Source of the DNA: Octopus vulgaris
Taxonomy: Eukaryota
Direction: 5' to 3'
Assembly: GCA_951406725.2 (NCBI GenBank)
Contig: OX597835.1
Span: 30,008,001-30,072,000, forward strand
DNA length: 64,000 nucleotides
Within the stretch, counting starts at the first letter, position 1, and the number at the start of each line of letters is the position of its first letter. Shown piece by piece: positions 46,921 through 47,360 of this stretch. The notes beneath the pieces were generated by a model. It saw only the letters and a program-made list of their open reading frames with translations, did not search any database and was not told the origin of the DNA. Both the position numbers and the translations under genes were made by a program.

Positions 46921-47360
46921 ATATTAAAATTACTAAGTCTCTATAAAAGAGATTACGGCAGCGTTTACTGGAAATTAATTGTTATCGCCATATTAATATG
47001 GCATTCTTATAGATATAAGAATAATCGCTGCCGCTGGTCAGCTCCATGAGGCCACCGCCTTAAGATAGCTATTGATACACTGAAACTAGGTAAATAGAAA
47101 CCTTCGAACAGAGACGTCAGTGGCGACACCTGCGTGGTCTGACTGCGCTACATTGACAAGGGGCAATACCCCGAAACGCGTCTGTAGCTGTCGGACTGGC
47201 AGTGTGAAGCGACTGACCTCCCTTGTTCGAAGGTTATAATGGATACAGATCGTCTATCAATAGCTATCTTAAGGTGGTGGCCTCATGGAGCTGACCAGCG
47301 GCAGCGATTATTCTTATATCTATAAGAATACCATATTAATATGGCGATAACAATTAATTT
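46921..47360. mobile_element. Fold-back Penelope-type element enclosing an intact hammerhead
   Basis: 106-bp arms 46972-47077 / 47255-47360 (2 mismatches), ~50-nt tail on the left, (TA)n on both sides. Confidence 0.8.
47147..47188 (+). ncRNA. Type-I hammerhead ribozyme, U3:A8 core variant
   Basis: GCTACA-TTGACAA-GGGG-caata-CCCC-GAAAC-gc-GTC^-TGTAGC: perfect 6-bp stem I, 4-bp stem II, palindromic ACGCGT stem III, predicted cut after 47182. Confidence 0.85.

Follow-up and report, generated by a model that had tools for sequence, protein, structure and literature searches.

The hammerhead motif at positions 47147-47188 of the window (the whole stretch of 64,000 nucleotides of octopus DNA analysed here) very probably belongs to a truncated, doubled-back insertion of a non-LTR retrozyme. 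The retrozyme unit measures 360-364 nt, was likely inserted at TA microsatellites by the reverse transcriptase/endonuclease of a Penelope-like element (PLE), and is predicted to cut only as a dimer, through a palindrome in stem III. By every feature that could be tested here, the octopus family is a non-LTR retrozyme; its core variant is a known one, and its insertions have the footprint of a PLE. The features of the locus are collected in Table 1.

Table 1. Features of the retrozyme locus and of the Penelope-like element in the window. Monomer position 1 is the base after the cleavage site; S1 and S2 are the fixed insertion ends described in the text.
Feature	Position	Strand	Basis
Type I hammerhead, predicted cleavage after C47182	47147..47188	+	sequence reading, descriptor scan; site from hammerhead numbering
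Stem I, GCUACA / UGUAGC	47147-47152 / 47183-47188	+	6/6 Watson-Crick
Core UUGACAA (U3 = 47153, A8 = 47158)	47153-47159	+	sequence
Stem II GGGG/CCCC, loop CAAUA	47160-47163 / 47169-47172	+	sequence
GAA	47173-47175	+	sequence
Self-complementary stem III hexamer ACGCGU; predicted partner is the same hexamer in a second unit (double hammerhead)	47176..47181	+	
C17	47182	+	hammerhead numbering
Extended stem I, putative Schistosoma-type partner of loop 2	47137..47196	+	folding, comparison with the available part of PMC2632901
Extended stem I, distal helix	47137-47143 / 47190-47196	+	
Extended stem I, internal loop UGC facing U47189	47144-47146	+	
Rod domain of the retrozyme unit, enclosing the hammerhead; also closes in the circular monomer fold	47099..47235	+	
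Rod outer helix aaccttcgaaca/tgttcgaaggtt	47099-47110 / 47224-47235	+	
Forward partial unit: monomer 260-364 then 1-178, ending at S1	47078..47360	+	
Inverted 5'-truncated second copy: monomer 70 to ~231-235, ending at S2	46919..47080	-	
CAC, 3-nt microhomology at the head-to-head junction of both copies	47078..47080	.	
(TA)n target microsatellite, left flank	46878..46918 (boundary approximate)	.	
(TA)n target microsatellite, right flank	47361..47475 (boundary approximate)	.	
Young Penelope-like element (Neptune/Nematis type, judged from the CxxC linker); two truncated arms in inverted orientation on (TA)n	9140-13025 (about)		

In a descriptor scan of the 64-kb window, no full type I hammerhead other than this motif was found; 0.005 per window would be expected by chance (200 block shuffles). 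The sequence reads as the original prediction described it, with a UUGACAA core in which both partners of the 3-8 pair had changed to U3:A8, and with stems I and II perfectly paired. The type I fold predicted for it agrees with both the sequence reading and the scan. The motif has the type I core N3 U4 G5 A6 N7 N8 A9 / G12 A13 A14 together with A15.1-U16.1, H17 and a Watson-Crick 3-8 pair. Rfam returned no family at E<=10 for 46930-47360, and no hammerhead was among the matches listed for the whole window (150 of 347). The missing Rfam match reflects model coverage and not family definition. Since descriptor searches fixed on CUGANGA and Rfam miss such families, retrozyme counts are likely underestimates.

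The motif belongs to a large repeat family. In the genome searched (2.8 Gb, 227 contigs), the core region gave 47 matches, most of them 97-100% identical (40 of 1,306 candidates scored), and the exact 22-nt stem II-III motif occurred 1,174 times, often at a spacing of 360-365 bp. Nine distinct monomers, cut between cleavage sites in real tandems, were 360-364 nt long with 40-43% GC. The pattern of a non-LTR retrozyme is present: a tandem, non-coding, multicopy unit within 150-450 bp, with one type I hammerhead each and no LTR. Arrays at one locus (L033) run to ~5.5 units that share diagnostic variants, and the window copy is itself a partial unit. Subfamilies are 70-87% identical to each other. 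An older group with N7 = U gave 147 matches, with 68-92% identity to the young unit by segment. Two older copies (L084 and L090; G000:C1:133798235, C2:42650287) have stem III reduced to the 4-nt palindrome ACGU, a minimal-hammerhead geometry within an otherwise full-length motif.

We observed that the core variant is kept across the family. Among 1,206 exact-context cores (same stem II context), 1,199 were U3:A8, none was C3:G8 and 7 carried a single mismatch (6 non-U3, all still A8; 1 non-A8). N7 was C in 243 cores, and A or C among the 100 rows listed. A search for the older N7 = U group as a C3:G8 version gave 0 genomic matches. That group was retrieved with a pattern already containing U3:A8, so its 147 members are evidence of the variant's age and not of its frequency. 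Other genomic copies thus keep both U3:A8 and the stems, as the original prediction required, and at the level of sequence U3:A8 is a family-wide compensatory pair. Its constancy in two young subfamilies partly reflects recent expansion.

The inner helices proposed to enclose the hammerhead are present, including gtcagt/actgac; they are part of the element and covary. The 47090-47245 segment folded at -72.8 kcal/mol (z -7.5), with 0/200 shuffles equally good. The same domain closes the circle when monomers are folded as circles (three monomers, z -5.4 to -8.9). We assessed covariation on the RNAalifold structure in an alignment of 23 copies (A1), hand-chosen to span the subfamilies after 3 of 26 rows were dropped for truncated flanks or a deletion. 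In this alignment 96.6% of 871 cells were paired. Double-sided changes occupied 28 cells versus 8.3 in shuffles (0/500), a count that ignores relatedness; at the level of pairs, those with a double-sided change (5 versus 4.4 in shuffles, 239/500) and further pair types (23 versus 24.7) were no higher than in shuffles. The exchanges in stem I were G-C to U-A and A-U/G-U/G-C.

Stem III was palindromic in 80 of 84 distinct contexts, with sequences that differ yet remain self-complementary (ACGCGU 65, ACUAGU 8, ACAUGU 5, ACGU 2; non-palindromic 4). A self-complementary stem III is described as the mark of a double hammerhead in the available part of PMC4209133. The double hammerhead was the minimum free energy (MFE) structure for the L033 dimer and lay <=0.8 kcal/mol above it for two others (L003, L012); in an older dimer (L082) it cost 8.1 kcal/mol over the MFE. 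The family thus combines a weak palindromic helix III with a predicted dimeric fold, in keeping with non-LTR retrozymes. The base following stem I was U in 82/82 copies, and loop 2 began with C in 82/82 and ended with A in 81/82; the bases for a putative Schistosoma-type contact that joins loop 1 to loop 2 are therefore present. That the subfamilies have retained the core, the tertiary-contact bases and a covarying palindrome points to selection on cleavage.

To describe the insertions, we scored 70 of them (80 retrozyme loci minus 10 duplicates). The loci had been located via the hammerhead, so this sample is biased toward hammerhead-containing copies. Outer 3' ends fell at S1 (+165-188; 54 ends) or S2 (+228-248; 46 ends) in 100 of 109 cases, with peaks at 174-178 and 235-238, ~60 nt apart, and 89 of the 109 adjoined TA/TAA repeats. 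Outer 5' ends lay away from both sites (26/30). Inverted insertions made up 39 of the 70; of these, 34 joined S1 with S2, and none joined S1 with S1 or S2 with S2. The two arms of an insertion shared their indel subtype in 18/18 typed C-family inversions (9 of each subtype), and arms differed by 2.4% within an insertion and by 3.4% between insertions. Matching arm subtypes could fit one template molecule, or subtypes active at different times. The insertion ends are distant from the cleavage site, so the template continued across it, either as a ligated circle or as an uncleaved multimer. Together, 5' truncation, an inverted truncated copy, a one-sided tail and a microsatellite target make up what reads as a PLE footprint.

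The window locus fits this pattern. Its inverted arms are present as predicted, although at 109 nt (97% complementary, 46972-47080 / 47252-47360) and not at 106. Their source is the inverted truncated second copy, likely a Penelope-type insertion scar; the left inverted copy ends at S2 and so has a ~60-nt tail that is absent from the right arm. A read-through transcript of the locus would fold into the long rod-like RNA that had been proposed. The arms themselves lie outside the element's RNA: they come from a second copy, inverted and 5'-truncated, and its length is different in each insertion. Because the window copy has a single hammerhead in 283 of the 364 nt of the unit and its stem III depends on a partner, activity of this copy by itself is unlikely. 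It is likely a dead-end product, and cutting by it, which could occur only in trans, is doubtful. The claim that this motif is the best candidate for an active ribozyme was thus reversed: the solitary copy is a poor candidate, and the tandem copies are the ones to test.

We weighed these data against other explanations of the locus. One is a solitary, monomer-active ribozyme at the tip of a long rod that the 109-bp arms were built to form. The complete 411-nt locus does fold as a single rod (-261 kcal/mol, z -30.7), and in the lone monomer the pairing probabilities are 0.89-1.0 for stems I and II. However, stem III of the window copy is 2 bp around a 2-nt loop with a monomer pairing probability of zero, and an alternative GAC/GUC pairing (0.6) takes up the core and the cleavage triplet. 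Arm length and junction also vary from insertion to insertion, and 31 of the 70 insertions are without an inverted arm, which leaves a purpose-built rod very improbable. The long, near-perfect inverted arms within TA repeats would also suit a DNA transposon of the MITE or foldback kind that has terminal inverted repeats of 109 bp and went in at TA. We rejected this candidate, to which we assign a negligible probability, because ends are unequal in the 34 of 39 inverted insertions that pair S1 with S2 and because the same 31 of 70 are not inverted. The two outer ends correspond to different unit positions, truncation of the inner ends is random, and units also occur in head-to-tail arrays.

A closer rival shares the PLE and dispenses with the circle: a SINE-like tandem element of PLE derivation, for which uncleaved linear multimer transcripts would be the template and whose hammerhead would be weak or protein-assisted. 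In the parts of the sources available, the anole PLE works from unprocessed RNA and has a hammerhead that depends on protein (PMC11167929), and 8 of 9 Xenopus dimers stayed uncleaved (10.64898/2026.07.22.740005). Copies that span the cleavage site are as compatible with an uncleaved precursor as with a circle. Set against this are a core, tertiary bases and a covarying palindrome kept across subfamilies that have diverged so far, and the ~5.5-unit arrays with common diagnostic variants. On balance we regard copying from uncleaved multimers as unlikely, if less so than the solitary rod.

We therefore favour a cleaved and circularised retrozyme carried by a PLE. Tandem loci would be transcribed, and neighbouring units would fold together into a double hammerhead that cuts after C17. 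Activity of the family hammerhead in this adjacent-unit form is highly likely. A host ligase would then close the monomers to circles, as in mussel and axolotl, and by this analogy ligation is reasonably probable. The PLE protein would nick both (TA)n strands, and reverse transcription would be primed internally at +176-178 on one strand and at +235-238 on the other, reading back over the cleavage junction. The two truncated cDNAs would finally be joined through microhomology. We hold a PLE as carrier, with nicking, two-site internal priming and microhomology joining, with strong confidence.

A more specific version of this mechanism is tentative and, in our judgement, somewhat doubtful. The inverted insertion would arise when a dimeric Penelope-type enzyme primes from both nicked strands at two fixed sites of one ligated circle. 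A probably slower U3:A8 core and a subfamily-specific stem III palindrome (GC, AU or UA centre) would keep circles closed, to be cut only by a like partner. If true, this would offer a natural model, open to direct test, of PLE mobilisation of ribozyme circles and of self-recognition between retrozyme subfamilies.

The window itself contains a young PLE that shows the same habit of insertion. It has a 57-nt one-sided tail, and both of its priming sites lie within the start of the ORF. Among the scored matches of its family, 143/150 were 100% identical, and full-length copies elsewhere in the genome carry an intact ORF of 1,308 aa (L132). The ends of this family lie 57 nt apart on (TA)n, and 9/9 visible inverted pairs have one of each. 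We identify the ORF by the RT, CxxC and GIY-YIG motifs that its translation contains; Atlas look-alikes scored 0.96-0.97 and carried HTH_animal/RVT_1/GIY-YIG, and Pfam and PDB sequence searches with the ORF gave no match. In a comparison of the window's PLE family with the retrozyme unit, similarity did not extend past a 13-nt match (E 0.12). The retrozyme is thus without sequence homology to the PLE family examined, and the footprint reveals the class of enzyme and not the partner. The string ATAACAAT before S1 is common to the PLE and the unit; because the A subfamily reads ATAACTAT there, this is a weak partner lead only.

The PLE side of this comparison is well described. Inverted truncated copies, a one-sided tail and a microsatellite bias are hallmarks of PLEs in the available part of Craig et al. 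2021 (10.1101/2021.04.23.441226). Frangieh et al. 2024 (PMC11167929, available in part) explained PLE tails by two-site internal priming in vitro, and there the anole hammerhead needed protein and was dispensable for in vitro insertion. As far as these partial sources go, the octopus retrozyme resembles Neptune/Nematis PLEs in its 5' truncation and partial tandems, in an inverted copy that is itself 5'-truncated, in a tail on one side only, in its bias to microsatellites, and in having two internal priming sites with the hammerhead upstream of both. It differs from them in having no ORF, a tail of ~60 nt versus 30-40, and a canonical instead of a minimal hammerhead.

Metazoan non-LTR retrozymes were reported by Cervera and de la Pena 2020 (PMC7229834), with units of 350-390 bp in mussel and 330-350 bp in axolotl; in the part of that paper available, circles are shown and PLEs are proposed as carriers. 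The octopus family shares with them a non-coding tandem unit below 50% GC, one canonical type I hammerhead per unit, a short palindromic helix III, a highly self-paired predicted circle and a high copy number (thousands there, >1,000 here). Unlike those retrozymes, so far as described in the same part, it has U3:A8 throughout, and its circles are a prediction. The available text is silent on cephalopods, on a two-site PLE-type tail and on inversions; we observed the latter two in the octopus family. Li, Clavereau and Pollet 2026 (10.64898/2026.07.22.740005) proposed that animal retrozymes are non-autonomous PLE derivatives, and 1/9 of their Xenopus retrozyme dimers cleaved in vitro. In its available part, that study builds its case for the same partnership on co-occurrence and on homology of the pLTR, chiefly in vertebrates, whereas the basis here is the insertion footprint; the word 'tail' is absent from its main text as available.

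U3:A8 itself is a known variant, and what is added here is the family. Natural U3:A8 hammerheads are in print in Perreault et al. 2011 (PMC3088659), whose available part cites earlier in vitro activity of such variants, and in Cervera and de la Pena 2014 (PMC4209133), where, in the part available, ~1,300 Schistosoma Cercyon-related minimal hammerheads carry it. These Cercyon-related hits are described there as minimal, heterogeneous and mostly single. By comparison with that description, the octopus motif is full-length, with a stem I of 6 bp, a stem II of 4 bp and a putative tertiary loop contact, and is set in a tandem retrozyme. Its closest structural parallel in the part of Dufour et al. 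2009 (PMC2632901) available is the full-length hammerhead of Schistosoma mansoni, which likewise has an internal loop in stem I, a U right after the stem with UAC opposite, and a C:A opposition in loop 2; the loop is CAAAUA exactly in 6/82 octopus copies. It differs from that hammerhead in the CAAUA loop 2 of the young subfamilies, the UGC bulge of the window copy and the U3:A8 core. In the literature searched, which lacked most subscription papers, we found no cephalopod retrozyme, no U3:A8 in a canonical tandem retrozyme and no U3:A8 cleavage-rate data. A literature search for 'U3-A8' with hammerhead matched only PMC4209133, subscription journals being outside its reach.

The octopus family offers an extensive natural series: a full-length hammerhead of the dimer type spread and kept U3:A8, whereas N7, stem I and the dimer palindrome changed. 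The insertion ends supply two exact priming positions. Given these ends and an intact young PLE ORF in the genome, PLE mobilisation of retrozymes is testable by the published in vitro PLE assay.

No data set recorded as RNA was listed as containing the family. Contigs from four presumed-RNA runs of 24 listed (organism A, four studies) covered 25-28 of 29 bins of a real unit. Their letters were largely those of the A subfamily; such contigs are uninformative on strand, cut site and circle, and we gave them no weight as evidence. Runs of organisms B-E contained 17-42% of the unit words by listing. A search for an outside origin of the family gave no match in metagenome and viral contigs. We also considered an imprint of RNA editing. 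Private changes in 107 C-family segments were C>T 7.1, G>A 6.5 and A>G 1.7 per 1,000; because C>T and G>A predominate over A>G, there is no ADAR-like excess, and this candidate was rejected.

Several other features were observed in the window. A minimal hammerhead-like motif with the core CUGAUGC lies within the window PLE at ~12865-12900. Five further minimal hammerhead-like motifs were found at 59462-59499 (+), 44251-44285 (-), 2852-2887 (-), ~37805-37845 (+) and ~47615-47650 (-), the last of these read by eye. They have an 8-nt core of the CUGUAGAA, CUGUCGAA or CUGACGAA type with a GAGC/GCUC stem II, and are probably the ends of another PLE-related family. A segment at ~29380-29455 translates to MTIAKYNNICFNK, resembles the start of the PLE ORF and runs into a microsatellite; a related PLE family probably ends here. 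On the + strand, 21380-22765 holds an open frame of 461 codons for a LINE-type reverse transcriptase (PF00078, E 8e-26), and 20628-21026 a Pif1 helicase 2B fragment (PF21530, E 1.9e-15), probably a Helitron remnant. A near-perfect hairpin of ~100 nt at 8258-8366, which miRNA models match below the gathering score, is probably a small foldback or MITE.
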